Assembly: GCF_030684315.1 (NCBI RefSeq)
Contig: NC_081356.1
Coordinates: forward strand, 33,071,197 to 33,135,196
Direction: 5' to 3'
DNA: 64,000 bases
DNA from: Stegostoma tigrinum
Lineage: Eukaryota
The notes beneath the pieces were generated by a model, which did no database searches, was not told the origin of the DNA, and saw only the letters and a program-made list of their open reading frames with translations. Numbering within the stretch: the first letter of the stretch is position 1; the number at the start of each line of letters is the position of its first letter. The position numbers and the translations under genes were made by a program. Below, piece after piece: positions 12,669-54,192 of this stretch.

Positions 12669-12855
12669 GAGATAGTAGGAACTGCAGATGCTGGAGAATC
12701 TGAAATAACAAGGTGTAGAGCTGGATGAACACAGCAGGCCAAGCAGCATCAGAGGAGCAGGAAGGCTGATGTTTCGGGCGTAGACACTTCTGAAGAAGGG
12801 TCTAAGCCCGAAACGTCAGCCTTCCTGCTCCTCAGATGCTTTTTGGCCAGCTGTG
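12669..12855. mobile_element. Miniature palindromic Penelope derivative
   Basis: Minus arm with tail (GAGATAGTAGGAACTGCAGATGCTGGAG) joined at CTTCTGAAGAAG to a plus arm. Hammerhead core at 12790-12817. Degenerate TSD TTGTGCACTTCT / TTATGCATTCCT. Confidence 0.85.
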
Positions 12856-13199
12856 ATTATGCATTCCTGTTCTTTTTTTCCTGCTTGGATATCTGTGAAA
12901 ATCCTTTTTCATGTGATCAGCTGCTTCAATAACGTTAACTTTGAGATCACTCCAGCTTCATGTTAGGAATAGCCAGTAAAGGATCTGTGTATCACTCCAA
13001 TACAAGATACACACCAAAGAGATTGCGAGACCTCAAAAGGCTTTTTCTGTGTGATCAGTAATAAGCACCCTTTCTTCATAACTGACCACAGCCCCTGGGC
13101 TATTGTGTTTAGGTCTGTTGAAGGAAACCTGAACCCATTAATTTCTGGCTCTCAGGTGTGACCACAATTGATACTCAGCGTGCTGTTTACATTTCCAAA

Positions 13200-13400
13200 C
13201 TGCTGCCAAGGAAGGAAGCTCATCAAGTTTTATCTTGATTGTTTGTTGCACATTCTGGGTATCTCATGGATGAACACAATCACAAATATGGCAGTCAGCT
13301 TAAAGTGCATATTTCCCCAAAATGCTGGTGCTCAAACAGAGGTCACATGCTGAGCTGGCTAGTGTCAAAAGACTATTACACTGCTTAAAAGGCTCCCTTT
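13200..13400 (+). mobile_element. Decayed RTE-type LINE fragment
   Basis: RKLIKFYLDCLLHILGISWMNTITNMAV resembles the RTE C-terminal motif FHLRCLRxILGIxWQDxITNxEV. Confidence 0.6.
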
Positions 13401-13570
13401 CAAGCATGCTTACAAGTGTGACACGAAAAATGGAAATATTGATTTTCACACCTAGGAGTCGCTGGGGGGAAATGGTGACGTCACCTTTGGCCTGATGCAT
13501 GTTACCATGTTGATTAGTGGTTACAACAGTTCGGTAACAGCCACCAACACTTAAAACAAGAACCCGAAAT

Positions 13571-13670
13571 GATTTCTGAAGAAGGGTCCCGACCCGAAAC
13601 GCCATCCTTCCTGCCACTCTGATTTTGCCTGGCCTGCCGTGCTCCTCCAGCTCCACACTGTGTTATCCCA
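13571..13670 (+). mobile_element. Short Penelope 3'-end fragment
   Basis: TTTCTGAAGAAGGGTCCCGACCCGAAACG...CCAGCTCCACACTGTGTTATC. Confidence 0.8.
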
Positions 13671-14017
13671 AAGTGATATCCAAGAACTACTCAAATGCAA
13701 TGCTTGTGGAAGAAAGAGCCTGTCTTTCACAGATTGGTCTCTTCAGCCATCCACAAAGTGTGCTTTTATGAAGGCCTCCTCCATCCCCAAGGGATTTGCT
13801 TTGACGCTTTTATATCTTTGAAAGAGGGAAGGATATTACCATGTGAATCCACTGGTGTTTGATGACAGCTAGTCAAAACTATAGTGAGTACTTGTCCACA
13901 GCTTGATTTAAATATCAAAATGATTGTTGGAAGGATCCTTCTCTCTCAAAAGTGCAGTGTGTTGATTCTAGCTGAAGCAGTATGTACTAAAAACAGCAGT
14001 CATAAGATCAGAGATCA

Positions 14018-14517
14018 GAGATGATGGGAACTGCAGAGGCTGGAGAATCCAAGATAACAAAGTGTGAAGCTGGATGAACACAGCAGGCCAAGCAGCATCT
14101 CAGGAGCACAAAAGCTGACGTTTCGGGCCTAGACCCTTCATCAGAGAGGGGGATGGGGAGAGGGTTTTGAAAAAAAAGGGACAGAGGGGGAGGCGGACCA
14201 AAGGTGGATAGTGGAGAAGAAAGGTGGAGAGGAGAGTACAGGTGGGCAGGTAGGGGGGGGATAGATCAGTCCCGCCCCCTTGACCTGTCCGTCCTCCCCG
14301 GACTGACCTATCTCCTCCCTATCTGCCCACCTGTACTCTCCTCTCCACCTATCTTTTCCACTATCCATCTTCGGTCCGCCTCCCCCTCTCTTCCTATTTA
14401 TTTCAGAACCCTCTCCTATTCCCCTCTCTGATGAAGGGTGTAGGCCCGAAACGTCAGCTTTTGTGCTCCTGAGATGCTGCTTGGCGTGCTGCGTTCATCA
14501 GCTTCACACTTTGTTAT
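14018..14517. mobile_element. Palindromic Penelope derivative (two inverted 3' ends)
   Basis: Minus arm 14018-~14272 with tail; plus arm ~14273-14517 without tail. Hammerhead cores at 14117-14144 (-) and 14428-14455 (+). ATAAGATCAGA on both sides. Confidence 0.92.
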
Positions 14518-14526
14518 ATAAGATCA

Positions 14527-14627
14527 GAGATAGTGGGAATTGCAGATCTGGAGAATCCGAGATAACAAAGTGTGGAGCTGGATGAACACAGGAGGCCAAG
14601 CAGCAGTGTTCATCCAGCTCCACACTT
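14527..14627. mobile_element. Second, minimal palindromic Penelope derivative in tandem
   Basis: Tail plus minus arm, then a short inverted GTGTTCATCCAGCTCCACACTT, followed by a third CATAAGATCAGA at 14631-14642. Confidence 0.85.
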
Positions 14628-15189
14628 AGCCATAAGATCAGACATACACGGGCAATATTGAGGAACATGGAATGGTCACTAAGCACTTTATTGGTAAATA
14701 ATCCCACTGGCCTATCCCTTGCTCAAGCATTTATATTGTACTCACCACAGCTCAATTGTTGTCAAATTATATCTCCAAAGAGATATAAATAAAGACTATA
14801 AATAAAGGACAATTGCCAGCTGCAAAGTCTACAAGGAAAGAAATCTGCTACAACTATAGCTCTTGACCTGTGGACATGCAGGTCCTACACTTCATATTGA
14901 GAACTGATAGCTAAATTAACTTCCTCCCTCTTTTAATTTAATGTACTGCTGTGTATTATTAAATAAGATTCCTGCTAATCATTCTGGGAGCTGAGCTCTG
15001 GACTGGGTTGCATTTGACTGCAGAAGTTGTCTTGAGATCCAGTACAATGAGAATTTAGACTGAAATTTAAAATCATCTTGTTAGTGGTTTTTAGACACTC
15101 ACACAGAGACAACCACTGTCTTTATTAAATCCGCATTAAAAAAACCTTACCACGTTTGCAATTTTAGTACTCACATTATAATACTATAC

Positions 15190-15252
15190 TTGTGAAAAAA
15201 GTAATAAATTTGGACAATGCTGTTTTGTGAAAAAGGTAATAAATTTGGAGAA
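15190..15252. repeat. Short tandem duplication (~35-bp period)
   Basis: TTGTGAAAAA(A/G)GTAATAAATTTGGA occurs twice. Confidence 0.8.
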
Positions 15253-15289
15253 ATAAGGTGTATAATCTGAACACATCTCATGGTAGATA

Positions 15290-15500
15290 AAGGTAAAGTT
15301 GTCATAGTCTCAGAGGGACCAGTCTCTGGTGAGAGAGAGAGATGACTGGTGGTAGCTTAACCTCAGGGTCACCACACCTCAGGTGAGGGGACAGATCGAA
15401 GAAGGAGGGACCTTAACAATAGTTGGTACAGGAAGTAAACCCACACTGTTGGTCTTACTCTGCAATACAAAACAGCTATCTAGCCAACTGAGTTGACTAA
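15290..15500 (-). mobile_element. tRNA-derived SINE (38418 family)
   Basis: AAAGTTGTCATAGTC...GAGAGATGACTGGTGGTAGCTTAACCTCAGGGTCACC...AGCCAACTGAG. Confidence 0.7.
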
Positions 15501-16329
15501 CTGCCACACCACCTGTCCCCACCCCCTGAAATGGAGACGACATAAAATCAAAGATTTGAATTTATGTAGATCGCTTCATTAGCTTGGTATTCCCAAAGTG
15601 CTATACAGTCAAAGACATACATTTGAAATGTGATTAGTAATGTAAAATGTGATACAACCAATTTGTTAACAGCAAGATCCCACAAAGAGGAATGAGATGA
15701 AGACCAGATAAGTGTTTTCAGAGCGCCAGATAGGGGATCAGAGATAAAATTCCAATTTTTTTTCTAAAAAATGAGACTCTATTGTTCTGCAAGGGAAAAT
15801 TCGATTCAATATTGCAACTGAAAGATGCTGCCTCCAACAATGTAGTCTCTCCCACCTCAGCTTTTGATTATTTCAGGAACAAAGACTCGAACAAAATCTT
15901 CCAAATCAGAGGTACAAATGCTGCCTACTAGGATGGAAGTGACATAATTAACAGAGTGACTGGAAACATTTTCACAAAATATATTTTCCAGTTTTAAAGT
16001 GTGTCACATGCCGTTATGGATTCTCTCCACAAAGCTGCAATATCAGTTATGAAGGTAGCAAACCACGTAGGTTTGCTCTTTCCAACCAAAAAGAAGTCTT
16101 CAACGCCTTTTTATTTAAAACTCAGTCAACCTTAAAAAGAAGATTTTAATCATTTAGGTTTTGAAACTTTGTGCATATCTGATCCTGCCAACTGACTATT
16201 GCATTATCTAATGCAATTAAATTAAACTTTTTTAAAACTTTGATGTCACATTATGAAACAAAAAAAAATAGAATCAGTTGCTCTGCTATTTAATTCCACT
16301 TTAATTCAGAAAACCCCTCTTCCAGGTCC

Positions 16330-16604
16330 TAGAATCATAGAATCCCTACAGTGTGGAAACAGGCTCTTCGGTCCAACAAGTCCACACTGACCCTCAGAGC
16401 ATCTCACCCAGACCCATCCCCCTGTAACCCACATAAATCTACACATCTCTGAACACTACGGGTAATTGAGCATGGCTAATCCACCTAACATGTGCATCTT
16501 TGGACAGTGGGAGGAAACCCTTGCAGACATGGGGGGAACATGCAAACTTCACACATTCAGTTGCCCGAAGGTGTAATCAAACCCGGGTCCCTCGCACTGT
16601 GAGG
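16330..16604 (-). mobile_element. HE1-like V-SINE
   Basis: Reverse complement of the 19191 element, with a CR1-type tail (TAGAATCATAGAATCCCTACAG) and a V-domain-like GGAGGAAACCC...TGCAAACT. Confidence 0.8.
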
Positions 16605-17235
16605 TCAGTAAGTGTAGAAATTTGTTCTCCTTTTAAACCACTTACTCTTACCTCCCAAGTCAGAAGGCTGTTTCCAAATTGCACTCTAGAATCTGAGTTG
16701 ACATTCCTGGTGCAGCATTGAGGAAGAGCAGTACCATCAGAGTTGCCGACACCTTGAAGATTTATTATATCGAAACCCTAGCTGTCGTTTTGGGAATGAA
16801 AAAGATCCAAAAAGGTACTAATTTTGAAGAAGGCTAGTTGTGTATTTCTCCTCAATTTTCCTGGTTGATGTTCCTCCATGAAATGGCATCACTAAAAATG
16901 GATGAGCTTACGATTTGCCATGTTGCTTTTCACAGGATCATGCTGTGTACAAATAGGTTCCTGGTTACTAATGTTACCTGAGGAGTTACAATTTAGTCAG
17001 GACATTGGGGACAACGCACTATGTTTCTCAATGGTGTCAAAGGATTTTTTTTACATGCACCTCGTGGAGGTGGGGGTGAGCTGTATGGAAACACCAGCCT
17101 TGCATTTGTTTGGCACTTCAGCATAGCTAAGACACCCCTAGGTGCTTCATAGCATTGTCACCAGACTGCAGTTTGACATGGAGTCACAGAAGGATGCTTG
17201 ATGTTTAGTGACCAAAAACTTAAAAACTAAGAGTT

Positions 17236-17855
17236 GAGATTGATTGATTGATTTATTGTCATGTATACCAAAGTACAGTGTAAAGCTTTGTTAATGAGCG
17301 GTACAGATAGATCATTGTAAGCAATGGATGTACAAATCAAACAAACTTAAACAAAGGCATACAGATTACATTGCATAGGGTGTGTGCTAGGTGAGATCAG
17401 CATTACTTGAAGCTAGAGAGCCTGTTCATCAGCCTAATAACAGCTGGGAAGAAGCTGTTCCCGAACCTGCTGGTGTGTGTGTTCAGGCTTCTGTATCTTC
17501 TGCCTGATGGAAGAGGTTGTAGTAAATCATTACAAGGGTGTGATGGGTGTTTGGTGATGTTGACAGCTTTTCCATAGTGGCGAGCTGTGTAAGTGGAGTC
17601 CATGGATGGAAGGTTGGCTTCCATGATGATCTGGGCTGTGCACACCACCTGCTGTATCTTCTTACGGTCCTGGCCAGAGCAGTTGCCATAGCAGGCCGTT
17701 GTATACCCAGACAATATGCTTTCAGTTATGCATCTTTAGAAGTTGGTGAGGGGCCTTATGGACATGGCACATTTCCTGAGCTCTCTGAGAAGGAGAGGTG
17801 TTGCTGTGCCTTCTTGACTGTCGCAACTACGGGGGAAGTCTAGGACAGGTTGTGG
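17236..17855 (-). mobile_element. Rex1/Babar-type LINE 3' fragment
   Basis: ORF 17403-17714 (GYTTACYGNCSGQDRKKIQQVV...HPSHP...LPSGRRYRSL...NSFFPAVIRLMN) is a typical Rex1/Babar ORF2 C-terminus. AATAAA and an (AATC)n tail lie at ~17237-17257. Confidence 0.85.
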
Positions 17856-19190
17856 AAAGGTCGATGTTGTAGGTTATGTTTCTTTAAGGTTCATATTACA
17901 TTGGTTCTGCCTATTCTGCTGATGTTACAGGGTGGAGACAAGGAGTTCTATGCCAGCTTTCGGAGACAGCAGTGATACCTGTCCCAGCTCTCTCAAGTCC
18001 CAGAAATCCTGCTTGACCAAATGTAGATACATATTGTTATCCAAGAACAGTCTTGAGGGGAGAACCGTATTTAAAAAAAAGTCTCTTGTAAATTAACATA
18101 CTAGTCACATTGAATATCCACTTTAAAGTATACGAGATTAAATTCAGACCAGTATGTCATTTGCAGGTTTAACTCTTTTTTGTTGCAGTGTGCCTCTTCT
18201 GTAAAATATTCTACAGTGGCGTACTCTTTACCACTAATCACTAGATAGGCCCAAGACAAAGCAAGAGACAAAAGAGGATTTGTTACAGCAAGATACCTTG
18301 AACAAACCCTTACCTGGTATCACTTCCTGGTAGAGCTGGCAAATACACAAGGTGCCAGAAGTGGTCATCTGAATGGAAGTACTTTATTGGAAAGCTTTAG
18401 GGAGGGAATTTCAGCACTTAACTGAACCTCCAGCTCGTCCCTCTCTTTGGTGGAGCAGTGAAAATCTCAGATGCCAAAGAAGTCAGAGTGGAATGTTTCT
18501 GAGGTGGGATGTAGGCCTGGTGGTGAGATGACTCACGAAGGCCATGGTAGGATTTAAACATTAGGATACAATTTGCAGCTTTTGACATCAAATAAATTGC
18601 TGTCTGTTAGAGGAAAAGAACATCGTAAACTGCAGTTCCAAACCAAACCTAGCTTCAAAAATGATTTATCTTTCCTCTCAGTTACAGACTACTCTCATGG
18701 CATTTTTGTTGCTTTTCTTTTAAATCTTAGAGTTTGCTGTGATTATCCACCTCTATCATTAACAGCAGCAGGAGATTTTGTCCTTTGCAGGTCACAGGCT
18801 TTGCAAGCTGAAGATGAACTCAGTACATTTTCACAACAAATTTTCAGTGATCCTGACAATGTTGGCATTTTGATGGCAGTGTGTTAAGTAGAAATTCCTA
18901 TGATGTCTCATGAATGCCTACATTTAACATTATGAATGAAGATGTTTGTGTTATAGATTCTGCACGTACAGTCAAAAACGTAACCAAAGATTGAATGATT
19001 AGTGAAATTGAAGTGACAGCGATTCATGTCTAATATCTGCTGAAGGCAGCTGGGTAAAGATAACATAGCTTTTAGGTGGGAAAAACTATTTTGATCTTGC
19101 ATTTATACTGCATTTTCAAAATGTGTCCTGGCCACATTACAACAAGAAAATGTTTTTTTGTTGAAACGTAGGTGGCACAGTTGAAATTTA

Positions 19191-19579
19191 GGGCAGCATG
19201 GGTAGCTCAATGGTTAGCACTGCCTGGGACCTGGGACCTGGGACCTGGGACCTGGGACCTGGGAAGTGCAGCTGGCTCAGTGGTTAGCATTGCTGTCTCA
19301 CAGCGCCAGGGACCTGGGTTTGATTCCAGCCTCGGGCACCTGTTTGTGTGGAGTTTGCACATTCTCCCTGTGCCTGCGTGGGTTTCCTCCTGGTGCTCCA
19401 GTTTCCTCTCACAGTCCAAAGATGTGCAAGTTAGGTAGATTGGTCACGCTAAATTGCCCGTAGTGTTCAGGGGTGCTTGGGTTATTGGGGGATGGACCTT
19501 GGTGGGATGCTCCAAGGGTCAGTGTGGACTTGTTGGGCTGAAGAGCCTGCTTCCACGCTGTAGGGATTCTATGATTCTA
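19191..19579 (+). mobile_element. HE1-like V-SINE with duplicated head
   Basis: TGGCTCAGTGGTTAGCA (A box), GGGTTTGATTCC (B box), GTGTGGAGTTTGCACATTCTCCC...GGGTTTCCTCC V-domain-like core and a GATTCTATGATTCTA tail. A second partial copy follows at ~19596-19830. Confidence 0.88.
19223..19264. repeat. (CCTGGGA)6 heptamer tandem repeat
   Basis: Six perfect units, read directly. Confidence 0.95.
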
Positions 19580-20144
19580 GATTCCACCCTCTTGCAGTTG
19601 TATGTGGAGTTTACACATTCTCCATGTCTGCGTGGGTTTCCTCTGGGTGCTCTGGTTTACTCCCACAGTTCAAAGATTTGCAGGTTTGTTGGATGGCCAT
19701 GCTAAATTGCCCATGGCGTCTACAGAGGCGCGGGCTGGATGGATTAGCCGTGGAAAATGCAGACATACAGGGACTGGGTAAGGTGCAGTGGGTCTGCGCT
19801 GGATGCTGTTTGCACAGTTAGTGTAGTCTCGAGAGGCTTCAGCTGGATATTTGAGTGAGCCTGGGAGTCAAATATCCTCCCACATTAGATAGGGTTTATG
19901 CTGTGACAAGGGCTAAAGGAAATGGAGAAAGTAGATTCAGAAGCAAATAGAGCAAGGAAAGCAATTTGACCTGTCTTATCTGCACCAACCCATTGAAAAG
20001 TAATTTTCTCCCAACTTTTCCATCATCCTTTAAGTTTACACCCCCCCCCCCGCCAAGTAATTATCCAATTCTCTTTTGAAATTTATTAAATCTGCTTCCA
20101 CCCTTTCATGAAGGACACTTCATAAACAAATAATGACTATCATA

Positions 20145-20387
20145 CAGAGTTTGGTGAAGTACTTGGCAGGTCTGGCAGCATCGGAGGATAGAGAGAGAGA
20201 GAGAGAGGATTAACACACGTAGGCAGATACGAATCCAAGTTAGTCCTGAAGAAATCATATTAGACTTGATGTTAACTTAAATTGCGAATTCTGCTTCAAT
20301 ATCCATAGATGCTGCCAGAACTGCTGAGTTTTTTCCTGCATTTTCTGTTTTTATTTCAGCTTTCCGGCATCTGCAGTTTTGCTTTTT
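20145..20387. mobile_element. Older palindromic Penelope-type derivative (second family)
   Basis: GCAGGTCTGGCAGCATC on the left is inverted relative to GATGCTGCCAGAACTGC on the right, which ends in a TTCCGGCATCTGCAGTTTT tail. Confidence 0.65.
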
Positions 20388-21623
20388 GATATTAAAGTTT
20401 CATGTGTTCTCCCGCTCGCCCATTATATCCCACTCTCTCACAATACCTCCTTGCACAATCTGGGAAAGAAAGAGACGGTTTACAACAGATGCTTTTGGAA
20501 ATTGTTTGAAATTTATGCCACCTCAATAACCTTGCTGCATCAATTTGAATATTGTTTCAACACAAACGCTCGTGAGATTCTTTTTTTCCGTTGCTTCCAT
20601 TTTGCGTTCCATGCTCTGCAAGCAGAGAAAACTCTGCGCTAAGTCAACTATTGAAACTCCTTTGCCTTAGCTATCTCTGTTCCTCCTTTAAGATATACTT
20701 TAAACCTATATCTACCATCAGTCCTGGTATCACCTCTCAAGACTTGGTGCCAAAAGTTTGATTTGGAGGTGCTCCAACAAAACAGTTTGTTATGTTAAAT
20801 CTACCATATGAATACTATTGTTGCTGTGAACAGTTAAGAATCACCTGTAGTTTGGTACTACCTCCCAGCTCATTGACCTGACTAGTGACCTTGGGAGCAA
20901 CCATGCCGATGCTGAGCAAAAACCAAAATTTGCACAGTGCTTTGGAGGCAGGGAGAAACATAGTCCCTTTAAATCAAGAAACAATCGACTTGATAGGGTT
21001 GCTACAGTTTTCCTTTTCTGACATTCTTGGACAGGGTGTGTGGGCTTGGTGTAGTGTTTCAGTTTAGGGGATTTCCAATTGAAATGCAGATGACAAGGAA
21101 TTTCTTCTGTCAAAGGTCATTCATCCTTTGAATTTGGTCCTTCAGAGACCAGTTACTGCGCATATTCAAGACTGAGTTAAACAGAGGTTTGATCTTTTGT
21201 TTGGGGGGAGAGGGTGGTTGGTGGGGGTAGGGAGGGGTCAAAGGTTATGGGGGCAGGCCAGAAAAGGCTATACTCAGATTAGGCGTGATGTGATTGAAAG
21301 CCAAGTGAGTCAAGGGGCCTGCAAGTTTTCCATATCCTCTTATGATCTACATATTATTTGCAAATCCAAGTATGCCTCCCTGCTAAAACAGACTGCAGCC
21401 TAGAGTCAAAATCAATAGGCATTTTTCATTTTTTCCACAGCAAAATGAAATAGAAAATAGATAACACAAATCAATCCCACTTGTTACAAGAGTCCAGGTG
21501 TGATGGACAAGGAAGTGATCCAGGTCATTGCCATTTTGACCAGGTCTTCTAATGCCACATTTACAACCAATCTCAGATATCTGTAAAGATTCTGAAGGGA
21601 TTTGATAGAGTAGACATTGTTTC

Positions 21624-21634
21624 TGTGTGTGTGT

Positions 21635-21676
<42 letters not shown>
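21624..21676. repeat. (TG)n microsatellite inside a decayed CR1 3' fragment (~21570-21960)
   Basis: About 26 TG units with one interruption. Confidence 0.95.
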
Positions 21677-21677
<1 letters not shown>

Positions 21678-24104: not shown

Positions 24105-24310
24105 GCAGAGCCTATTAGCAAGGTCACTACAGTCCAAATGGTGCTCCTCTCAAAGAGAGATGAGTGGTAGTGACTTAACCCGAGGGTCACTGTGCCTCAG
24201 GCAAGGGTGAGAGGTTGAAAGGAGTGTTCTCATGGTAACCTCAGCTGGGCTGGGAATTGAACCCACACCGTTGGCATTACTGCATTGAAAGCCAACTGTC
24301 CAGCTAACAA
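24105..24310 (-). mobile_element. tRNA-derived SINE (38418 family)
   Basis: GAGAGATGAGTGGTAGTGACTTAACCCGAGGGTCAC...GGGAATTGAACCCACACCGTTGGCATTACTGC. Confidence 0.72.
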
Positions 24311-28129: not shown

Positions 28130-28191
28130 CGAGAGAGGGAGAGGAAGAGGAGGAGGAAGAGAGAGAGAGAGAGAAAAAGATAGAGATAGAG
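28130..28191. repeat. GA-rich microsatellite
   Basis: Mixed GAG/GA/GATAGA run. Confidence 0.85.
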
Positions 28192-33127: not shown

Positions 33128-33325
33128 GAGGTGGTAAGAACTGCCAATGCTGGAGTCTGAGATAACACTGAGTGGAGCTGGAGGAACACAGCAGGCCAGG
33201 CAGCATGAGAGGAGCAGGAAAGCTGAACATTCTGAAGAAGGGTTCTGACCCAAGACGTCAGCTTTCCTGCTCCTCTGATGCTGCCTGGCCTGCTCTGTTC
33301 ATCCAGCTCCACACTGTGCTATGTC
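33128..33325. mobile_element. Miniature palindromic Penelope derivative
   Basis: Tail-bearing minus arm (GAGGTGGTAAGAACTGCCAATGCTGGAG...) followed by a tail-less plus arm starting TTCTGAAGAAGGG. Confidence 0.85.
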
Positions 33326-37053: not shown

Positions 37054-37071
37054 CAGACTCAAATTAAGGAA

Positions 37072-37271
37072 GAGATCATGGGGGGAACTGCAGATGCTGG
37101 AGAATCCAAGATAACAAAGTGCGAAGCTGGATGAACACAGCAGGCCAAGCAGTATCTCAGGAGCACAAACGCTGACGTTTCGGATGAAGGGTCTAGGCCC
37201 GAAATGTCAGCTTTTGTGCTCCTGAGATGCTGCTTGGCCTGCTGTGTTCATCCAGCTTCACACTTTGTCAT
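37072..37271. mobile_element. Miniature palindromic Penelope derivative with 14-bp TSD
   Basis: CTCAAATTAAGGAA at 37058-37071 and 37272-37285. Tail on the left arm only; arms join at TTTCG|GATGAAG. Confidence 0.92.
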
Positions 37272-37343
37272 CTCAAATTAAGGAACACAGGAACGGACAG
37301 ACCATTCAGTCCTCAGCTTACTCAATTATTCAAATATATGATG

Positions 37344-38373: not shown

Positions 38374-38417
38374 ACCTTACTTTGGTTCAACTTGTTGTCA
38401 CCTGCTCTAATATCACA

Positions 38418-40919: not shown

Positions 40920-42084
40920 TGGTGAACAAAATTAGGGCACAGTGGTGAACAAAATTAGGGCACACGGTATTGGGGACAAAATACTGAGTTGGATTGAAAA
41001 TTGGCTGGCTGACAGGAAGCAAAGAGTAGTGATAAACGGGTCCCTTTCGGAATGGCAGGCAGTGACCAGTGGGGTACCACAAGGTTCGGTACTGGGACTG
41101 CAGCTGTTTACGATATACATTAATGATATAGACGAAGGCATTAAAAGTAATATTAGTAAATTTGCTGTTGACACAAAGCTGGGTGGCAGTGTGAAATGTG
41201 AGGAGGATGTTATGAGAATACAGTGTGACTTGGACAGGCTAGATGAGTGGACGGATGCATGGCAGATGCAGTTTAATGTGGATAAATGTGTGGTTATCCA
41301 CTTTGGTGGCAAGAACAGGAAGGCAGATTACTATCTCAATGGAGTCAAGTTAGGTAAAGGGGAAGTACAACGAGATCTAGGTGTTCTCGTATATCAGTCA
41401 ATGAAAGCAAGCATGCAGGTACAGCAGGCAGTGAAGAAAGCTAATAGCATGCTGGCCTTCACAACAAGAGGAATTGAGTATAGGAGTAAAGAGGTCCTTC
41501 TGCAGCTGTACAGGGCCCTGGTGAGACCACACCTGGAGTATTGTGTGCAGTTTTGGTCTCCAAATTTGAGGAAGGATATTCTTGCTATTGAGGGAGTGCA
41601 GCGTAGGTTCACAAGGTCAATTCCCAGAATGGCAGGACTATCATATGTTGAAAGATTGGAGTGACTGGGCTTGTATACACTTGAGTTTAGAAGGATGAGA
41701 GGGGATCTGATTGAGACATATAAGATTATTAAGGGATTGGACACTCTGGAGGCAGGAAGCATGTTTCTACTGATGGGTGAGTCCAGAACCCGAGGACACA
41801 GTTTAAAAATAAGGGGTAGGCCATTTAGAACAGAATTGAGGAAAAACGTCTTCACCCAGAGAGTGGTGGATATATGGAATGCTCTGCCCCAGAAGGCAGT
41901 GGAGGCCAACTCTCTGGATACTTTCAAGAAAGAGATAGATAGAGCTGTTAAAGATAGTGGAATCAAGGGTTATGGGGATAAGGCAGGAACAGGATACTGA
42001 TTGTGGATGATCAGCCTTGATCATAATGAATGGTGGTGCTGGCTCGAAGGGCTGAATGGCCCACTCCAGCCCCTATTGTCTATC
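40920..42084 (+). mobile_element. Young 5'-truncated CR1 LINE nested in the older CR1
   Basis: ORFs 40942-41664 and 41671-42000 share one frame, split by a single TGA. Motifs VTSGVPQGSVLG, KFAVDTKL, LVRPHLEYCVQFWSP; 3'UTR GGCTCGAAGGGCTGAATGGCC. Confidence 0.95.
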
Positions 42085-42351: not shown

Positions 42352-42499
42352 TACCGAGTGTAAGCCTGGTGGACTAGGGCAAATGGGAATAAAAGCCTAT
42401 ATGTTGGGCTGAATTTTACTAAAAACATTGGCTAAGTGTCAATTTTGGCAAATTTAATGGATAGGTTATTTTTGTGTCCTAGTAAAACTTCTCCCAGTA

Positions 42500-43855
42500 T
42501 GGGGCTTCTGCTATAGCGCATGTTCCAGCATTGTGAATTGGCTATAATGTGACTGACAAATAGGGGATTGTCTTTTCTAAAATACAAACTTATGTTAGCT
42601 ATAAACATGATTCCATCAGTGACCTTATTGATGATGATGTTTTGGAAAATGTTTTGGGAAAATATTGCAGGAAAAAAAATGGATTTCTAGATTGTCCTCA
42701 TCCTGGATAATGTGCCAAGCCATCCTGCCCCACTGGCGAGCTGAGCTTTCTGAAAACAAAGTGCTATCTCTACGCCCAAACACAAACTCTCTCCTTCAAC
42801 CCATGGACCATAGTGCAATAATATGCTTTAAAAGCTATTATTTAAGGTGCACATTTAAGGGCTGATTGCAGCCACTGAGGGGGATAATGACAATGTTCTT
42901 CGATTTTGGAAGAGCTTTAACATCAAGAGTGCAATTAATATAATCATGAAGGCCTGCAGCGATGTCAGTAAGGACTGCTTGCATGCAGTTTGGGGGAAAT
43001 TTCTCCCAGATTTTTTAAGATTTTAAAACGTTTGATCCATCAGAGGAGCTCCCAAGAATCAGAGAACATTGTATTAATCTTGCAAAGCAAGTTGGATTTG
43101 AAGAAGTGCAGAGTGAGGATGTTGAAGAGCTGCTTGAGTCCCACTGTGAAGACCCCTCTACAGCTGGTCCACAACAACTAGTCGCTGAAGGGGAAGTGGA
43201 GGCTGGAGATGAAGAGTATCATGTCCAGGATACAGCACCATGAGAATCTTCCACTTCTGTTTTGTCTTCTATCCTGAGGGACACTGAAAAGCAGTTGCAG
43301 CTCTTAGAAGACAATGATGAACATTGCAGAATGCAGCAGGGTAGCAGTTTGTGGAATAAAATCTTAATTGACACTCTGTGAATAGTTTCTTCATGAAAGA
43401 AGAAAAAGGGCTAAGCAGCAGAAAACTGCAAGTCTTTTTTAAGCCACCCTCCAAGAAACAGTCAGAAGACAATGAACCACAGCCATCCACTTCTGGATTA
43501 ACTATGTTTCGCCCTAATGTTGCAACTACAACTGCACCTGAAGGTAATGTTGATGATGGTAATGATCCTCAGCCCCTGAATTAACAACAGAGCAACAACA
43601 AAACCTCCTCCCCCGTTAAGTCACCTTGGCATTTTTTTCAAGATAAGGTGTTAAATTTACTTTTATTTCATTATTAGATATGAATCAAACATTTATTCAA
43701 ATTGTGCTGTCCTTTGTGTTAGGCTTTGAGTGATATCTTTTGGTGATCTGCCCCAACTCCACTTTTCCCATAGGCCCTGTTATTTCTACAGTGAGATTTT
43801 CTATGATGTGATGTCATGCAGGAATGCAACTATCGCATTATGGCAGAACCCTCTG
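42500..43855 (+). mobile_element. Tigger/pogo-family DNA transposon, internally deleted and decayed
   Basis: DDE remnants (IVLILDNVPSHP; LRPNTNSLLQPMDHSAIICFKSYY). Imperfect TIRs GGGGCTTCTGCTATA / TATGGCAGAACCCTCTG with TA on both sides. Confidence 0.82.
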
Positions 43856-46044
43856 TATTCTTCAAAATTCACTCCATGACTGATGCACCATGCTCATCCC
43901 ATCTTCCCTCTCATCAGAAGAAGCAGAAATACTGCCAGGACGTCCCACAGCTCCCAGCACTGGTGCCGTTTAAAGCCCAGCCGTGCATCAGGTCAAGTGC
44001 TGCTAAGCCAATTAAAGTTGCCCTTAATCATGCATTTAGTAGTGGAAAACGAGAAAATGAAAGCTTTTAAGGGCGCATGGCTGACACTTCAATGCAAATA
44101 CAAGTGCACATTTATAAATGTTTTGCTGTTTTGGGACCAAGCAACACAGTTTACCCATACTTAGTCTCATCTTTTCTTAGAATTCCAAGTGAATATTACT
44201 GTCTTCCTCAATGTCCAGCATAATTTACAGCTTCATCATACCAACCACCATTTTGCATTATAGGTCCAACCCAAACTCAGGTTGGCTGTGACTATTGATG
44301 GTTTACTGCAGAATGAGGGCCATGTCTTCCAACATATTCTCCCTCCCACCTTGGATGTTTCCACCCTACACAATCATTGCCCCCTCTGCATTCCTGTGTG
44401 CTACCTCCAGTCCCTACCATTGACCTCCCCAACTTTCTTGGGACAGCATTGGCTGCTGATACCCCCTTTGATTGAGCTGATCCCTACATTTGATATCTCC
44501 CAAATAATCACTGACCTGGCTCTCTACTGATGTTCATGTAGCTTCTTGACCGACTTCCTATGAATCTCCAACCTGATTGCATAGGACTAACCATGACCCC
44601 TTGCCCAAACTGCAGAGCTATGAACCATCTGGCCTGCATGCCAAGTGGCCAACTGATCATTTCCAAGCCCAGAATAGATGGATGATTCCCTTTTCTTGGT
44701 GTACCATGACTCCCTGACTGAAGGCTTTTGGCCTTGGCCTTATTGACACTATTCCATAGACTGAGACAAGGTAGTTTGGCTGAAGCATGTGCAGTATTCA
44801 TCATGCAGGCTGCTGGCAGATGGTGCTGATGTGAAATTGGCGGAGCACAGTGCTGTACAGCAACATATCTACCGATTTGACTGATGACTGCCGACAACCG
44901 TGACAAGCTGCGTCTGTGCTAAAAACAGGAAACTCTGAAGTACTAGAAGACTAAGTCTTGGCTGAGGGAGTGAAGTGCAAAAAAAGGAAAAATAAGAGAT
45001 GCCTGTGCATCCAAATAGGTGCAAATTGAGTGAGATCTAAGAGAACACGTGAGAACTCCGAGACATTGCCCAATCCATCCCATGAGCAGGGTGCCTGTCC
45101 CTGTGTGCATAGTATCCTGGCAGCAGCATGATGGCGGGTGTCAATGCAGCAGTATGGGTGGGACCTACACCAGGAGCTGCAACAGTTCAAGGATGCAGCT
45201 TACCAGCTTGCAAAGGATATTAAAGGATGAGCAATAAATGTTGTGCGCAAAAATGATGTGGAGGAATAATGTACCAGAGTCATTAGTCAGAGTAACAAGA
45301 TGTAATTCATGACTTTGGTAAATTTCAGTTCAATGCTGTATTAGGCCATGGTAGGTGGGGGAGGGACCTGATTGCAGGCATTCAAGCATGGAATCATGGG
45401 GAAAATGGGCGGTTATTTGATGGGTGACAACAATTCAGGAACTTTGCCGGGAGAAAGGAGTTTTCATTAGGCAAGGATTAGGGTTAGTGTTAAGGATAGA
45501 GAGGCAATGATGCTCATATCCAGAAGTTAAATTTAAAAATCGCTGCCCAAGTGGTTGACCTTCTAAGACCCAGCCAAGTTTTTTACTTGACCTTCATGGT
45601 TTTGTTTTCATATTTCAGCATCAGACAAAAAAAACCTAACTAAATCAAAGCCATCACACAAACCCACCACTCTACTGAAATGAGCATTATTTCTTTAGAC
45701 CAGATTAAATTTACATCCATTTTGGTAGAGAAATTGGCTGGGATGCCAGAATTGTTTTAATACCTTGTATCGTGTCATCTGATATGTCATCTTTTATACT
45801 TGTGTTGGGGAAGTTTGTTGACATGATGCTAAAATCTGGGGTCAGCTGGTGAGAAACCGTACAAAGATTTAACTAAAACAGAAAGGACCGGCAAAGCTCA
45901 GCCTGCCAGAGTTAACATAGCGAGTCGAGTGGCCCTTCCTTAGAAAACCAAGATTTAGTTTGTTATCCAAGTTGTAGTTTTTTATTGCTTTCATGAGATG
46001 TAGGTGATGTTCACACAGCCAACAATTGTTGCACATCTCCAATT

Positions 46045-46145
46045 GTTCTGAGGAAGTGTCACCGGACCCGAACTGTTGACTTTGTTTTTTTCCTTCACAT
46101 GCTGCCAGACCTGCTGAGCTTTTCCAGCAACTCTGTTTTTGTTCT
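46045..46145 (+). mobile_element. Second-family Penelope-type 3' end fragment
   Basis: TTCTGAGGAAG...GACCCGAACTGTT...ATGCTGCCAGACCTGCTGAGCTTTTCCAGC. A similar piece lies at 32845-32960. Confidence 0.65.
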
Positions 46146-46869
46146 AGCTGCCCTTGGTCTGATTGGCAGATCGAGGGCAGTCCACATTGCTGGAGATGAT
46201 GGCAGATTTCCTTCCCTGAAAAAGGCAAAGAAAGGAAATCGGATAGACTTTAAATATTTTCATGGTCACCAAAATGGAGACTAGCTTTTAATTCCAGGTT
46301 TTTTTTCCTCCCGAGATTGGAATTTAAAATTCCCATTAACTATGAAGGAATTTGAAGCCACACTGCCTCTCCTTGATGGTTAGCCTGGATCATTACATTA
46401 ATACTGGCAGATGTGTGCTGGTAAAAAGTGAAGGTATCATAAGGACGCCTAAGTATAAAACCCAGCCAACCAAAACTGGACCCTGACCTCTGGCTGAGGT
46501 GGTGAATTACTTGACATCTTGAGACCTCCTACAAACACCCATAACTAACTTTCACACTGGGACTAATTACACATTCTGCCCTTGCTTCACAATGTTATTT
46601 TTGTGTTACTCGTCTATTGCCTAAAGTTCTTTAATTTATGTAGCTACAGTCTTATCCTGTTCATAATGAGGAATTTCACGTGCTTACTGGGGGTTTTACA
46701 AAAGCATTTTAGCCTGTCCCCAGCAGGTAGAAAATAAACTGTCTGATATGCACTGTTTGTTCCTATCTGCCTTAATATTTTTGACAGAACAAACACCATC
46801 TATTTAGTTTGCATCATATTGTTTGCACCAATAGTATTCTGGATTTTTGTTTTTTTTTTAAAACTGCAG

Positions 46870-47002
46870 ATATTCATCGGTGAGATATCAATGTATTTTA
46901 TAAAATCAACAAGAGAAAACCTCCTCAATCAAGAGAAGACCATTGTAACCGGAGAGTGTTGCTATTTGAGTCCTCTTTTTCGAAGAGTAATAAGGTTTAT
47001 AG
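46870..47002 (+). CDS. PLPPR1: PLPPR1 internal coding exon (133 nt, phase 0/1)
   Basis: CTGCAG|ATA...ATAG|GTGAGT. Encodes IFIGEISMYFIKSTRENLLNQEKTIVTGECCYLSPLFRRVIRFI(G), in frame with the previous exon. Confidence 0.96.
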
Positions 47003-50000
47003 GTGAGTCAGTATACAAAGCTACTTTGATATTTGCAAACAGCGCTCAAGGAACTTGACACCATCCAGGACAAAGCAGCTCGCTTGATCAATGACTCATT
47101 CGCAAAGATTCACTTCCTCCAGCACCTAAGCTCCGAAGTACATAACGCTTCTATCTACAAGATACACTGCAGAAGTTCAAAGATTCTTAGACTGGATTCA
47201 AAGGATTCTTCAAACCCATGACCACTTCCATCTGGAAGGACAAGGGCAGCAGATACAGATGAATATCACCACCAAGCCACTCACCACCCTGACTTGTTCC
47301 TTCACTGTTATTGGGTCACAATCCAAGAATTCTCTCTCTAGTAGCACTGTGCGTCCATGTAGAGCAAATGGACTGCAGCAGTTCCAAAAAGCAGCTCAAC
47401 ACCACCTTCTCAAAATGTCACCTGGGGATGGGGAATAAATGGCGACCCAGCCAGCAACATTCACATCCCCCAAGTGAATTTAAAAAAAACTCAGTTTTGA
47501 TCCCATCTAATGACAGAAATGATAATTGAAATCCATTTTCTATCTTATAGTAAAGGTGGTTCAGGGTAGTTTTATTTGAGTAATTCCAAATTAGTTGGAT
47601 TGGGAAAGAGAAAATTAAGGAGAAACAGTTTCCTATGGCAGATGAGTCAGTAGTGAATGGTCATAGAATTATAGTAATTGGTAAAAGAACCAGATAAGAG
47701 ATTTTGTTTTGAAAAACAAGAGTTATGATGATCTGCAAGGGAGGTGGAGATTTAAAAGTAACTTTCAAAAATAAAGAAGAAAATTAGATAAATATTTGAA
47801 GGTAGAAAATTCACTGGAATTTGGGAAGCAACTGATTGCTTTGCACTTTCAAAGAGCAATCACACAAATACAATCGGCCAAATGGCATCCACTTGTGCTG
47901 TGAGATTCTTAGATTCCAGGTATTGCTGACCAAACTCCATGATACAATTATCTGCAATTCTGCCAAAGCAGAGGTAACAAAGATGGTCATGTTGACTCCT
48001 TGAAATGATGTAAATGGGGCCAAATCAGCTCAGCTGCACTTTGTACACCTCTCCCAATTGCTACCTCTCTTTTGGTCAAAAAACTAAAAAAATCAGTGCA
48101 GAAGGAACATAGGTTCAAAAGGAAACCATTCCATCCATTTAAGCCTATTCTGCCATTCAGTAAAATTGCTGCTGATCTGTGTCTTAAGTCCATCTGGCAC
48201 CCTGTTTCCAAAACACCGAATCAACAAATCTGTAAAGCTAAGCTGTGGAGTTCAGGATAACCTTTTGTCTCAATCACTTTATGATGGAATAATTCCAGAT
48301 TCCAAGTACCCAGTTTTATGTGACATAAAATTAGAACCAGATCATTCAAAGTTATGTTATCTCTACTCCATTGTTTTCAACCCTTGTCAAAAATTATCAC
48401 CCATCAACTTCTTTCATCAACTAAAACACTTATTAGATAACCCATAAATATTTCATTCTTGACAGAATGCCAAAATGGTTGCAAAGTCCTCATAATACAG
48501 GGTAGAACACAAATCAACATTGGCCATCTGCTGTTATAAGTGTGCAGCCTGACCGGTGAAATATCAAGAGTGACGAGATGAACTGGAAATCTCAACATAG
48601 ACACACCTTCTCAAAAGCAGATCAAAAACTTGCTCAAACCCCGGTTGTGCGTTGTATTATCAGATGTTTCCTTTATGCACTTACTCCTTCTGGAAGAAAT
48701 CAATTAAACGAAAAGAAGCTGTGTCACAATTTCACAGTTAGGAGTGACAGAATGCATTTGAAGATCAAATCTGTTGATCTTTTGAAGGGAAGCTGTGTAG
48801 GTTCAGCCTGTCAAAGTCCATCTGTTCCACAGCATGTGTCTTGTAATACTCTGTACACAGCTACAAGAAAATAGTCTCATTTGTAATTAAGGAGATTATT
48901 TATTACTTTTAAAAGAAGTCTTTCCATTGCCCAGCATTTTCCAACTTTTCAGAAAGTGCTGCTGCAATGGAGCAGTGTGTAGTAACTAGACTCCCATATA
49001 CAAGACATCACGTTTGCAGCTTTTCATCCTTGACTAACTCTTGCAGCAAGGACACAATTTTAGACTGCGGCTCTGGTCCTGGTGGACTGGTTATATCTAA
49101 ATATTGCTATCAGCTATAGTTCTCAAATAAAAAAAATTCCCAGTTTGTAGTAAACATCCTGAGGCACATTATGAGAAATGTAAGCAAACACATTTGATGT
49201 TGAACAATCTAAGAAATTAGGACGACTAACCAAAAGTACAGAGTAGGTTGTTTTAAGGAGCACCTTATGGAGGTGAGCGTGATTTGGCAAAAGAAATTCC
49301 AAAATTCAGGATCAAGGCAGCAGAAAGGTCAATTGCTGATGATGGATCATTGGAAATTGGTTCTCTGAATGAGGCATGTTTTGGAGACCAGGAAGGATTG
49401 GGAGTTTGGAGGAAGTTGTAGACATCAGTAATTAACACTGTAGTCTGCGCTGAACTTTTGTAATCACCAGGATTGTCACAGTAAGACCTACTCATGCAAT
49501 GAAGTGTTTAAAAAAAAGGCACGAGGGTCCATTTTGAAGACTAAGTCAAGGCACTGTTTATGGTGATAGAAAAAGCACTCAACCCAGAGTTGGCTCTGGT
49601 AATTTTTCAGGCAACTTTAATTAAATTGCACCTGGAAAAAAGTGATGGGTCAAAATGGGGATGTCAGATGCCACTAAGTTAAGCAAAGCAATGAGACAGT
49701 GCCACTAAATACAAATATACATATATACCAGGAACTGAAAGCATATTGTCATTTGGCCCTCCAATAAGATCACGGCTGATCTGCTTAAGAAATAAAATTC
49801 ACACTCCCATTACCTTTAACTTTTTATTCATTTGCCAAACAGGAATTTCCTGTCACCTTGAAACTATCTAGTGATTCTTGTCGCCAACTACTGAGGCTGA
49901 GAATTCTAAAGGAGCAGAACACTCAAATTTCCCCTCAACTCTATCCTGAGAAAGGGAGCCTGTAAATTTTACAAACAGATTTCCTCATGAATACCAATGA

Positions 50001-50924
50001 ATATTTACTAGCAAATGCACACTTTTCTCCATTGCTTTGTTGCTTATTATAGCTTCATTAAATGCATTAGGGGAAATTGTCCAGAATTCAGACCCCTCTG
50101 TTGCCACATGACTCAAAACAGGGTTTTACTCAAGTATACAAGGGATCAGGCACTTCGGTAAACGTAATGCACAAACTTCCATAACAAACAAATGCAGAGA
50201 ATATAACAAGTACAGTGGTTATCTTAATATACCTGCCAGGAGTCGATCATTGAACTGACACTACCACCAGTTCTTTGGTGTCTCCAATTGAGCTTCTTTT
50301 GTTGTACATTTAGAATACTGACCTTACCTTCCTGCAATCTGGACCTGAAATTTTGGTTATTCACTTCATTTGAGCCAACCTATAGAAGCTTAGTGTATTC
50401 TGGCATGAGTGTCCATCAAGACCATTAATCTCAGGAGTTATATACAACTTTGATGGATCCCATAGTGATTATAATGATTTGGACTTCCTGGTTCTAGCTA
50501 ACCCATCTGATACCAGTCTCACAGTATGAAGATATTGTCAGTATTTGGTATCTAAAAGTGCTCAAGTTATAACGTTCCATATCTTCATTGTCAAGTCTAT
50601 CACATATTTAAACAATTCTTGACAATAATGACTGTCCAATACACCTGGGGAGTAGATCTCTGCAACAGCAGTTAAAAGGTGATCTTTGGCCCAAGAAGTT
50701 AATCAAATTGAGGTGTAGAAATTCTGAGGGGCATAGACAGGGTGGAAAGAAAGTAGCTGCCTCTTTAAGTTGAAGGGTCTGTGATAAGGGGTCATAATTC
50801 TGAAGTGAAAGACAGGAGATTTAAAGGGGATTTGAAGTAAAATCTTTTTAACCCAGAAGGTAGTGGGAACTTGGAACACACTAGGAGTCTAGTTGAGGTA
50901 GAAAGCTAAGTGACGGCAAATTAA

Positions 50925-51113
50925 AAATGCCGGTAGGTCACCATAGTGACAATAAGACTACTCTCAGAGAGAATGACAACTGGTGGTGGTTTAACCAGAG
51001 GGGAGAGACTGAGAAGGAGAGTTCTTCATGGTAACCTTAACCAGTGTGGGAATTAAACCCATGGTGTTGGTGTTACTGTGCGTCACAAACCAGCTATCCA
51101 GCCAACTGAGCTA
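50925..51113 (-). mobile_element. tRNA-derived SINE (38418 family)
   Basis: GAGAATGACAACTGGTGGTGGTTTAACC...CAGCCAACTGAGCTA. Confidence 0.72.
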
Positions 51114-51361
51114 AAATCAGTGCCTTAGTATATAATAGATGATGTTTTGTTTTTTCAGTGCAGGCTCTGTCTCCTCTACACCATATAACCTAATTCTATG
51201 CCTCCAATTACCACAAAAAACAGATTGTCTCCTCTGAACCTCCTGCCCGTCTCTTAAAATTATGCCCACTTGTTACTGACTCTTCAACTAAGAAAAACTG
51301 GTGCTTTCTATCCACCCTGCCCATGCCCCTTCAAATCTTATACACCTTCAATCAAGTCCAC

Positions 51362-51488
51362 TCTCAAAAGGGTCGAGGCCTGAAGCATCAGCTTTTGTGC
51401 TCCTAAGATGCTGCTTGGCCTGCTGTGCTCATCTAGCCCCCGACTTTGTTATCTTGGATTCTCCAGCATCTGCAGTTCCCATTATCTC
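51362..51488 (+). mobile_element. Short Penelope 3' end with tail
   Basis: AAGGGTCGAGGCCTGAAGCATCAGC...CTCCAGCATCTGCAGTTCCCATTATCTC. Confidence 0.85.
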
Positions 51489-51917
51489 TCCCCTCTCAGT
51501 CTTCTCAGGTCTAAAGAAAAAAGAGATTATCTCCCCATTCTCACTTTGTTTCTGGAGGAGGTTTGCTGTACACTAATTGGTTATTGTTTTCTGTATTATA
51601 GTTGAGCCTACATTTCAAAATTAGTTCATTGGTTGCTGTGAGATATCTGATTGTTGTATAGATTATGATATAAAACAAGCCCTTCTTATTTCATTGCACC
51701 CCCAAAGACATTTTGCAAGACAAACATTGCTCATTTTAACATAGCACAAAGGACAATGAAATAAACAAAGTGAAGATGTTAAATGGCAGGAGATTCCATT
51801 ACTGTATGGTTTGTGCCATTGTTGGTTTTCTATTAAAGCAAATTATTTAGCCTGGTGTTCATTTTCTTCAAGCAAAACCTGCATTACAGAGGCAACGTGA
51901 ACAAAAACGATTGTAAA

Positions 51918-52642
51918 TTTCCCAGCAACCACAGGAAGTGCTACAGCTGCCTTATAGCTCCTACCTCACCTCCATTCAAGGCACAAAACCAAACCTTCCA
52001 TATCCGACAGGTGTTCACCTGCACATCTGTCAACTTGGTTTACCGTATCTGCTGCTCCCAATGTGGCCTCCTGTATATCAGTGAGACCAAGCTTGGACTC
52101 GGAGGCCGCTTTGTAGAGCATCTGTGCTCTGTACACAACAAACAACACCACCTTCCAGTCGCCAACCATTTTAACTCCACCTCCAACTTTCTGGGTGGTA
52201 TATCCATCCTGGGCCTCCTCCAGTGTCACAATGACACCACCTGCAAACTGGAGGAGCAACACCTCATATCTCACCTCGGGACCATATACAGCCCAATGGC
52301 CTAAACATGGAGTTCATGTTTTAAAACCTCCCCACCTCCAGCCTCATCCCGTATCCAACCCTCCCTCTCGTCTCAGACAACTTGACCTGACACAACCTGT
52401 CCATCTTCTGTCCCACATATATTGCCCCACCCATCTTACTGCTCCATTCCCACCACTCCCTACCTACACTCATCTATCACCATCCTGCCTACTTTCCCCA
52501 GCCCCACCCCTTCTCTCTATTTATTTTTGAGCTGCCTTCCCCCTCCCCATTTCTGAAGAAGGGCCCCGACTCGAAATGTCAACTTTCTTGTTCCTCTGAT
52601 GCTGCCTGGCCTGTGTGTTCCTCCAGCTCCTCACTGTATCGT
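51918..52642 (+). mobile_element. Older 5'-truncated Penelope-like element (GIY-YIG + 3' end)
   Basis: TFHIRQVFTCTSVNLVYRICCSQCGLLYISETK...HHLPVANHFNS; decayed hammerhead core near 52553-52580. Confidence 0.88.
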
Positions 52643-54007
52643 CAATTGACGCCATTGAGTTAGTCAGTGGATGTGGGGTGGGAGTCTTAGCAATATGCAC
52701 ATCAGCAAGTAAATCCTAATTACAAACGAATTGAATCCATTTAAACCAATCACTACAGCAGTGTACATAGTTTGGTTGAAATTTGCACTGCAGTCCATAG
52801 AGAGTTTAAAGACAGACAGTCTTTAAAAACTACAGCAAAAGAGAACTTACAACCGACTTCCCTCAAGTATAACAGAATGACTTGTCCAGTAACAAAACAG
52901 CTTGTGGAGAACAGTCACACAACAATGCATCTCAATAATCTCAAGGCCAATTTTTAACCCTCAAATAACACTACCATGCAAAAGCAAAACAAATTGTCTG
53001 GTCATCATTGCAGTTTGCTGAGTTCAAATGAGCTGCCACATTCCCCAGACTATAACAATAACTACAGTTCAAAAGTACTGAGTTAATGGTAAAGCATCGA
53101 GATGTATGCTGATCATAAAAGATGGCATATATAGGTAAGCCTTTTTCTCTATTCCAAGATTTCAAGTCCACAGCATTGCCACTTCAGTATGATTGCTGAG
53201 ATATAATTGTTTTCCAGGTTTTATCATTTTCCACTCTCAGACGTGCTCCCAAATGTGACTTTGACCCACCTCTAATTCTACATTACCGAAATAAACCACC
53301 GTAGGAACATAGGTGTGTATTATTCACATCATACAGCCCCTCACATCTGCTCTATCAGAGTAGGCCATAGTGTTGAGGTTGATGATCGGCTATGTTTCTG
53401 TGCTATCCCCGTATTACTCACGTCATTGATAGATTTTTAGATTTCTAATCTGTCTTGAACTTACTTCATAGGAATGAATTTGCAGAGCCCTCTGTGGTAA
53501 AGAATTTTTAAGATTGTGAAGTAGGGAGAGGGGAATCATCCATTCCTGTTTCTACTCTGTCCCTTGAGGACTTTTGCACGTCTCTATGAAATCACTGCTC
53601 ATTGTTCTAACCTACAGAGGATACAAAGGCCCAGTCTCCCCAATCTCTCCTCAGAACAAATTTACCATCCTTATCTTCTAAACTTTTTTGTGACTCCAGG
53701 CCCTGTCAAGATGGCTGACTTTTCACTGAGCTCTAAAGTGGCCTAGAATGTTAGTTGTACCTACACTATAAACAACAAAGAGAATTTAAAAAGTAGTAAG
53801 TCGACTGTAAAGCATTTAGATATCTGGTGGTCACATAATATGCTATATTGTATTAAAAAGTTTCTTCAAATTTTCCAACTTACAATTTTTCCCTCTCAGA
53901 CTTCCTCCTAAATGTAAATGACCTTGTGTGCCCCCATCAGACAATTGGGAATTGTCAACAAATGTGCACATCCTGAGCATGAAGAAAACAAAATCAGGAG
54001 GCATCTT

Positions 54008-54120
54008 GCTGGATGAACACAGCAGGCCAAGCAGCATCAGAGGAGCAGGAAAGTTTGATGTTTCGGGTTGAGACCCTTCTTCAGAAATGGTTCTCCAGCA
54101 TTGGCAGTTCCTACTATCTC
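54008..54120. mobile_element. Minimal inverted Penelope derivative (minus arm plus only the tail in plus orientation)
   Basis: TCAGGAGGCATCTT at 53994-54007 and 54119-54132 (12-14 bp TSD). Confidence 0.88.
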
Positions 54121-54192
54121 AGGAGGCATCTTTTTGTTTCCACACTGGGTTTCGCACATTTAAAAAGGGTGGTGTCCCAAACTTTATTCCCC

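Follow-up and report, generated by a model that had tools for sequence, protein, structure and literature searches.

Head-to-head Penelope-like insertions with a one-sided tail in Stegostoma tigrinum and their probable origin by two-ended priming

Insertions and parent element in the window

The window analysed here is a stretch of 64,000 nucleotides from Stegostoma tigrinum (assembly GCF_030684315.1, contig NC_081356.1, positions 33,071,197 to 33,135,196 of the forward strand), and its subject is a series of insertions of a Penelope-like element (PLE). Seven of them consist of two inverted arms, the first always on the minus strand and the second on the plus strand; exactly one of the two arms has a tail, and the internal junction differs from insertion to insertion. 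All seven had been listed as two-arm insertions in a first-pass annotation and were found to be present. Positions within arms are given as d, the number of nucleotides upstream of the tail end.

The largest structure is a 4.7-kb head-to-head copy (57252..61966) with a 16-bp target-site duplication (TSD) and arms 98.5% identical. The tail-less arm (57252-59905, minus strand) reaches d2687 on its 5′ side, and the tail arm (59906-61966, plus strand) reaches d2060. Both outer junctions were spanned by contigs from sequencing runs. A 5′-truncated open reading frame (ORF) on the plus strand (59844..61613) was predicted from Pfam matches and sequence to encode a reverse transcriptase (RT), a C-x4-C-x2-C linker and a GIY-YIG endonuclease, and the RT portion was recognised in the same way in the tail-less arm (58038..59966, minus strand). 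The E-values were 5e-5 and 9e-4 for RVT_1 and 3.7e-4 for GIY-YIG, every score being under the curated cut-offs, and a PDB search gave no match. Judged by its sequence, the element is a PLE of the EN+ type, with the RT followed by GIY-YIG in a single ORF. Its linker is of the Neptune/Nematis type, in agreement with the CX2-5CxxC motif upstream of GIY-YIG in the available part of PMC8557442, and cannot tell these two clades apart.

At 61838..61865 (plus strand, d128-101) lies a minimal hammerhead core motif (CUGAUGA, stem II, GAAA, GUC). An Rfam scan for hammerheads returned nothing at the gathering threshold, and the predicted hammerhead fold of a sister copy was no better than that of shuffled sequences. 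The tail (61933..61966, plus strand) is ~34 nt long and lies between two putative RT start sites. In three of 14 long loci (L212, L215 and L224), which are full-length copies, a direct copy, itself truncated, stands ahead of the ORF as a partial tandem (pseudo-long terminal repeat, pLTR), and the tail reads through into the ORF start. In the long frame, the first ATG comes ~40 nt after the tail.

The six other structures are smaller. The hairpin at 12669..12863, of an older subfamily, has its tail arm on the left (minus strand, d120) and its tail-less arm on the right (plus strand, d130). It runs to ~12863, beyond the end at 12855 assigned earlier; its TSD score was not above chance. A young-subfamily hairpin (14014..14517; tail arm d253, tail-less arm d282) has a 14-bp TSD at 14002-14015 and 14518-14531, and beside it stands a mini-hairpin (14527..14629; d81 and d65, in the same order) with an 11-bp TSD unit at 14518 and 14632. 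The 11-bp unit is present three times, at 14002, 14518 and 14632. Because of the positions of the 14-bp TSD, the larger hairpin is likely to have inserted at its smaller neighbour's tail edge. This tandem (14002-14642) is the sole tail-to-tail contact in the genome sample described below, and the same layout was seen at locus L026. The older-subfamily hairpin at 33128..33325 (d102 and d130) has a degraded 15-bp TSD with three mismatches, and the hairpin at 37072..37271 (d110 and d125) has a 14-bp TSD at 37058-37071 and 37272-37285. Finally, the insert at 54008..54120, likewise described at first as inverted arms of a palindrome, is not palindromic: a tail-less arm (minus strand, d134-53) is joined to the tail only (plus strand, d30-0) and the two do not overlap. 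Its TSD is 14 bp long (53994-54007 and 54119-54132).

Tail asymmetry, target sites and junctions in the genome sample

The sample comprised 1.664 Mb of the 3.2-Gb genome, namely seven 200-kb blocks at round coordinates and 264 kb including the window. Self-BLAST and a profile built from the last 300 nt of the element recovered all seven window structures; long bodies of the older subfamily were poorly detected with the references used. The 467 arms formed 119 head-to-head pairs and 229 single arms, and the pair set was cut to 111 by removing eight copies in a triplicated segment. This segment, in the C14 block (~33-94 kb), is ~24 kb long and triplicated at 99-100% identity. The density of the hammerhead core was 32/Mb in the sample and 28/Mb genome-wide, with 89,060 exact core copies in the genome.

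A tail arm was paired with a tail-less arm in 104 of the 111 pairs, while three pairs had no tail, one had two and three were ambiguous (binomial P = 2e-26). The single pair with two tails resolved to the common form after refinement. The earlier claim of a tail at exactly one end was thus upheld in the sample as in all seven window structures (7/7), and the counter-cases named with it, tails at both ends or at neither, amounted to only one and three pairs. The rule is not new, being part of PLE anatomy in the published passages cited below. There were 119 head-to-head pairs against one tail-to-tail contact, and the 3′ ends of arms fell into two classes, one at d~1 and one at d~31-40. The arms overlapped in 108/111 pairs. 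At locus L104, part of the tail is inverted inside an arm. A third, older family makes the same kind of pairs, with ends at ~d10 and ~d52 (for example at 101601-101812 of the C1 block).

The TSD score was passed by 57/64 young and 19/47 old pairs, compared with 3/300 flank shuffles. Their length was 8-17 bp with a mode of 14-16 (8-17 bp in 53 young pairs at no more than one mismatch). The range of 11-16 bp proposed at first was matched in the window by lengths of 14, 14, 14 and 16 bp and by the 11-bp unit, but one TSD was degraded, one stood at chance, and the sample range was wider. Pairs of up to 300 bp made up 83 of the 111, or ~1.6e5 genome-wide by extrapolation, and older-subfamily pairs were almost all short. 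No empty-site joint was found among 15 of ~1,400 rows of sequencing-run contigs, and these runs may come from the assembly's own sample. Several of the best-supported joints in the same 15 rows ended at the tail boundary, a weak hint only, as a local reference indel biases the position.

[quoted passage not shown] An exact junction was common to only two of the 111 pairs, the other 109 being unique, and 23/111 agreed within 2 nt. Genome-wide, the junction of 37072..37271 recurred as an exact 31-mer at 20 loci, and 307 loci had a perfect palindromic centre, so that the earlier statement that all junctions differ holds for the window and for 109/111 pairs but not without exception. Such recurrence is what a master copy would give, and the best 30 genome matches to one copy all covered its junction region at 91-100% identity. 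However, 20 and 307 loci are few beside the 89,060 core copies. Moreover, the 20 loci carried the tail on the left in 15 cases and on the right in five (one partly rearranged), belonged to three haplotypes (subfamily backgrounds) and varied in outer ends and TSD lengths; two loci inspected from the 307-locus class also differed in haplotype and ends. Because polarity, haplotype, ends and TSDs differ, a recurring junction marks a hot zone and not a master copy. Symmetric terminal inverted repeats (TIRs), a fixed TSD, and a uniform size with a common junction were all lacking, and each arm often held sequence that its mate lacked. A MITE or master-copy origin is therefore very improbable. The sequences support the view, already taken in the first-pass annotation, that the inserts are independent two-ended products; the identical junctions with a fixed TSD length that would speak for a transposon were not seen, as the repeated junctions came with differing TSD lengths and polarity.

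The list of insertions given earlier was not complete, as at least six clear single arms, besides three degenerate ones, also lie in the window. Tail-bearing arms were found at 629..906 (plus strand, with a 7-bp flanking repeat by eye) and 51360..51488 (plus strand). Tail-less arms were found at 1517..2352 (minus strand) and, from the older subfamily, at 10744..10832 (minus strand), 13571..13668 (plus strand) and 51918..52639 (plus strand, long). At 10484-10947, a tail-less arm is enclosed by a 114-bp direct duplication, and an inverted 15-bp match at its 5′ end suggests a captured or rearranged flank. In addition, an RT fragment from an unrelated LINE, presumably CR1-like, was found at 40936-41664 (plus strand, RVT_1 E = 4e-11).

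Arm lengths, template and the 5′ ceiling

Among the 76 TSD-bounded pairs, there were 32 in which the tail-less arm exceeded the tail arm on the 5′ side by more than 10 nt, and by up to 1.5 kb. This bears on the proposal of PMC3846280 (as given in its available part) that one cDNA or antisense RNA folds back and primes itself. Symmetric centres, including the perfect palindrome at 307 loci, would suit such a fold-back, as would the variants common to mates and the 44/76 pairs in which the tail arm is equal or longer. In the 32 pairs, on the other hand, the upstream sequence is present only in the tail-less arm, and in 3/111 pairs the arms do not overlap at all. Since each arm holds sequence absent from the other, neither can be a fold-back copy of its mate in these 32 pairs, and the copy set rules the route out for many insertions. 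Judged from these sequences, fold-back already fails as a general route and is most improbable as the explanation. As the arms are not copies of each other, both were likely templated by RNA, with a different target end as the primer of each.

The lengths of the two arms were coupled. The 57 pairs scored comprised 20 long-long, 31 short-short and only 6 mixed (P = 1.6e-9), and the 24 of the youngest haplotype comprised 10, 11 and 3, respectively (P = 6e-4); short and long products arose from the same haplotypes. Furthermore, in 52 pairs the mates agreed at subfamily sites in 48/50, 46/49, 44/49 and 40/46 cases (~25 expected), and had 44 rare variants in common, compared with 2.2 in shuffles. 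At CpG-decay sites the agreement was at expectation (33/44 vs 32.8 and 36/46 vs 33.2), and general gene conversion at a later time is disfavoured because mates disagree there. The coupling and the shared variants together favour a single template.

The account that we consider probable is one of independent PLE insertions in which both target ends likely prime, ~34 nt apart and usually on one RNA, and the cDNAs are joined head to head. Both target strands would be cut ~14-16 bp apart, and reverse transcription would start from both ends, at the tail end for one and ~34 nt upstream for the other. The two syntheses would usually share one RNA, and their cDNAs would then be joined through the 0-4 nt microhomology (35/57 junctions without insert) or short inserts observed at the junctions. 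Hairpins of ~200-230 bp most likely arise by tail-site priming near the transcript start, both cDNAs running off the transcript's 5′ end after ~130 nt; long copies would start at the downstream tail site.

The first-pass annotation had described truncation at various lengths. The lengths do vary, but two features had been missed, namely a strong ceiling at d128-136 and the coupled lengths of the two arms. In 216 young arms, the stop hazard was 0.035/nt at d128-136 and 0.0016 at d137-160, and the same mode was seen in 150 old arms and in single arms with a TSD. The truncation is thus non-random, with 5′ ends piling up ~130 nt upstream of the tail; those of short arms concentrate 2-7 nt upstream of the hammerhead core motif. 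A similar C/T run at ~d163-179 sits in a low-hazard stretch. The arm ends suggest that the ceiling probably reflects run-off at the 5′ end of the RNA, the alternative being a barrier to the RT; run-off is proposed because partial tandems place the tail site close to the mRNA start as well. An accumulation of arm ends at d100, where the hammerhead is predicted to cut, was considered and rejected, as only 4/111 tail-less arms ended there and their junctions were ambiguous on inspection.

Short hairpins might instead be long palindromes shrunk by central deletion after insertion. Long inverted repeats are prone to deletion, and older pairs are almost all short, although old long bodies were poorly detected. 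The ceiling, however, is sharp, the d128-135 stop is also seen in single arms with an intact TSD, and short pairs are as numerous as long ones in the youngest haplotype, so that this explanation is highly unlikely.

A more specific version of the two-ended account is offered tentatively, as it falls somewhat short of an even chance. A dimer would cut ~15 bp apart and use two fixed starts 34 nt apart, amounting to built-in twin priming on one RNA. Loading at the 5′ tail site would give a strong-stop-like run-off at the capped RNA end and hence ~10^5 hammerhead-centred hairpins, which, if this is true, map the transcript start within genomic DNA.

Several observations weigh against two-ended priming on one RNA as set out above. 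The tail arm was more than 10 nt longer in 17/76 TSD-bounded pairs, which indicates no strict leader-follower order and refutes the candidate rule that the tail-less arm is always longer at the 5′ side. In one recurring-junction class, arms of different subfamily were found at 3/17 scorable loci, and in 2/57 pairs a long tail arm had a partner ending at d131-150; a two-RNA route thus exists at least sometimes. Moreover, a single RNA would look the same as two RNAs of one source locus. It could be, then, that the two active sites of a dimer each work on a separate RNA and that the coupling comes from one active source transcript type per cell. The discordant loci, the fact that either arm may be the longer one and the dimer predicted for the Poseidon element PAc (PMC11167929, available part) fit this explanation, but mixed pairs were just 6/57 although the same haplotypes yield short and long products, and the fixed use of the tail site at one end and the upstream site at the other is left unexplained. 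We regard it as unlikely, though well ahead of fold-back or central deletion.

Also on the adverse side, the RNA 5′ end near d130 is a prediction from genomic arm ends. A copied cap would give an extra G at the start. The ratio of G to A preceding a start at d130 was 2796:938 (3.0-fold), compared with 1049:718 (1.5) at d128 and 1633:1894 (0.9) at d131, an excess that fits a copied cap, though perfect-palindrome centres (up to 614/2796) and microhomology confound it. Single arms, in addition, outnumbered pairs (229 vs 119), and the 144/229 scored for TSDs (88 young and 56 old) passed in only 24/88 and 8/56 cases, respectively (control 5/300). Unlike most pairs, 64/88 young single arms had no TSD, and the model is silent on their origin, for which deletion at the target or a subsequent loss of the second arm are candidate causes. 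A distant TSD scoring 11 or more was found for 6/112 single arms and 0/150 controls. Some single arms bear a second arm of ~9 nt and a few are overlooked pairs, but most are without any TSD.

Comparison with known systems

An inverted 5′-truncated copy with a one-sided tail of 30-40 nt is described PLE anatomy (PMC8557442, Fig. 2; PMC3846280), so the layout of the inserts was already known. As far as the available passages of PMC3846280, PMC8557442 and PMC2377424 go, EN+ PLEs agree with the present element in the RT with C-terminal GIY-YIG, partial tandems, the inverted 5′-truncated copy, the tail at one end, the TSD and, as a candidate here, the hammerhead motif in the pLTR. For instance, Pen2a_Av of Adineta vaga has an inverted pLTR, a one-sided tail and TSDs of 8-10 bp, for which self-priming was proposed (PMC3846280), endonuclease cleavage was suggested as the source of the inverted structure of PLEs (PMC8557442), and Penelope of D. 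virilis has an internal promoter and a 34-bp repeat (PMC2377424). Minimal hammerhead pairs on opposite strands, ~100-700 bp apart, were noted in PMC4209133 (part seen). The present insertions differ in that 83/111 pairs are no longer than 300 bp and in the TSD mode of 14-16 instead of 8-10 bp, and the arm coupling and 5′ ceiling were not found in these passages.

In vitro, Poseidon PAc of Anolis cut and extended both strands, with two start sites flanking the tail, on an uncleaved RNA template, and later integration steps were left unvalidated (PMC11167929, part seen). The two RT start sites bounding the tail and the extension of both strands are like those proposed here. PAc belongs to another clade, however, its ORF starts inside the hammerhead and not ~40 nt past the tail, and head-to-head products are not explained in that part of the paper. 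Proposals on the route to the inverted pLTR and one-sided tail of PLEs differ (PMC3846280, PMC8557442 and PMC11167929, as far as seen); nothing further on mechanism was found in the accessible parts of PMC5753468 and PMC8969392. If two-ended priming is true, these long-unexplained features would be explained, and what it predicts (a stagger, a pair of start sites, use of the same RNA, and an RNA start near d130) suits the existing in vitro system. Neither a twin-priming reading for PLEs nor a publication on miniature hairpins of PLE origin from this lineage was found in the literature searched, although subscription papers and supplements may already hold the former.

MITEs resemble the present hairpins in small size and high copy number (PMC5172404, in part), but symmetric TIRs, a fixed TSD and a uniform size are absent here. 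MITE-finding software would likely misannotate such retro-derived hairpins, and the ~10^5 copies could yield double-stranded RNA if transcribed. Animal retrozymes derive from PLE pLTRs (bioRxiv 10.64898/2026.07.22.740005, part seen), but unlike their direct tandem hammerhead units, the arms here are inverted. One region (G000:C1:140329036-140330223) has, among the core matches listed, eight on one strand at a 166-bp period and may be a pLTR-derived direct array, either retrozyme-like or a satellite.

In LINE-1 twin priming, a single RNA is primed from both target ends, which gives an inversion within the TSD. The insert at 54008..54120 is like its non-overlapping form. In the present insertions, however, the second site is fixed ~34 nt away, the arms overlap in 108/111 pairs and there is no poly(A). 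Non-overlapping parts, which characterise L1-type inversions, were seen in 3/111 pairs only, and the two systems appear to work alike without the present one being L1.

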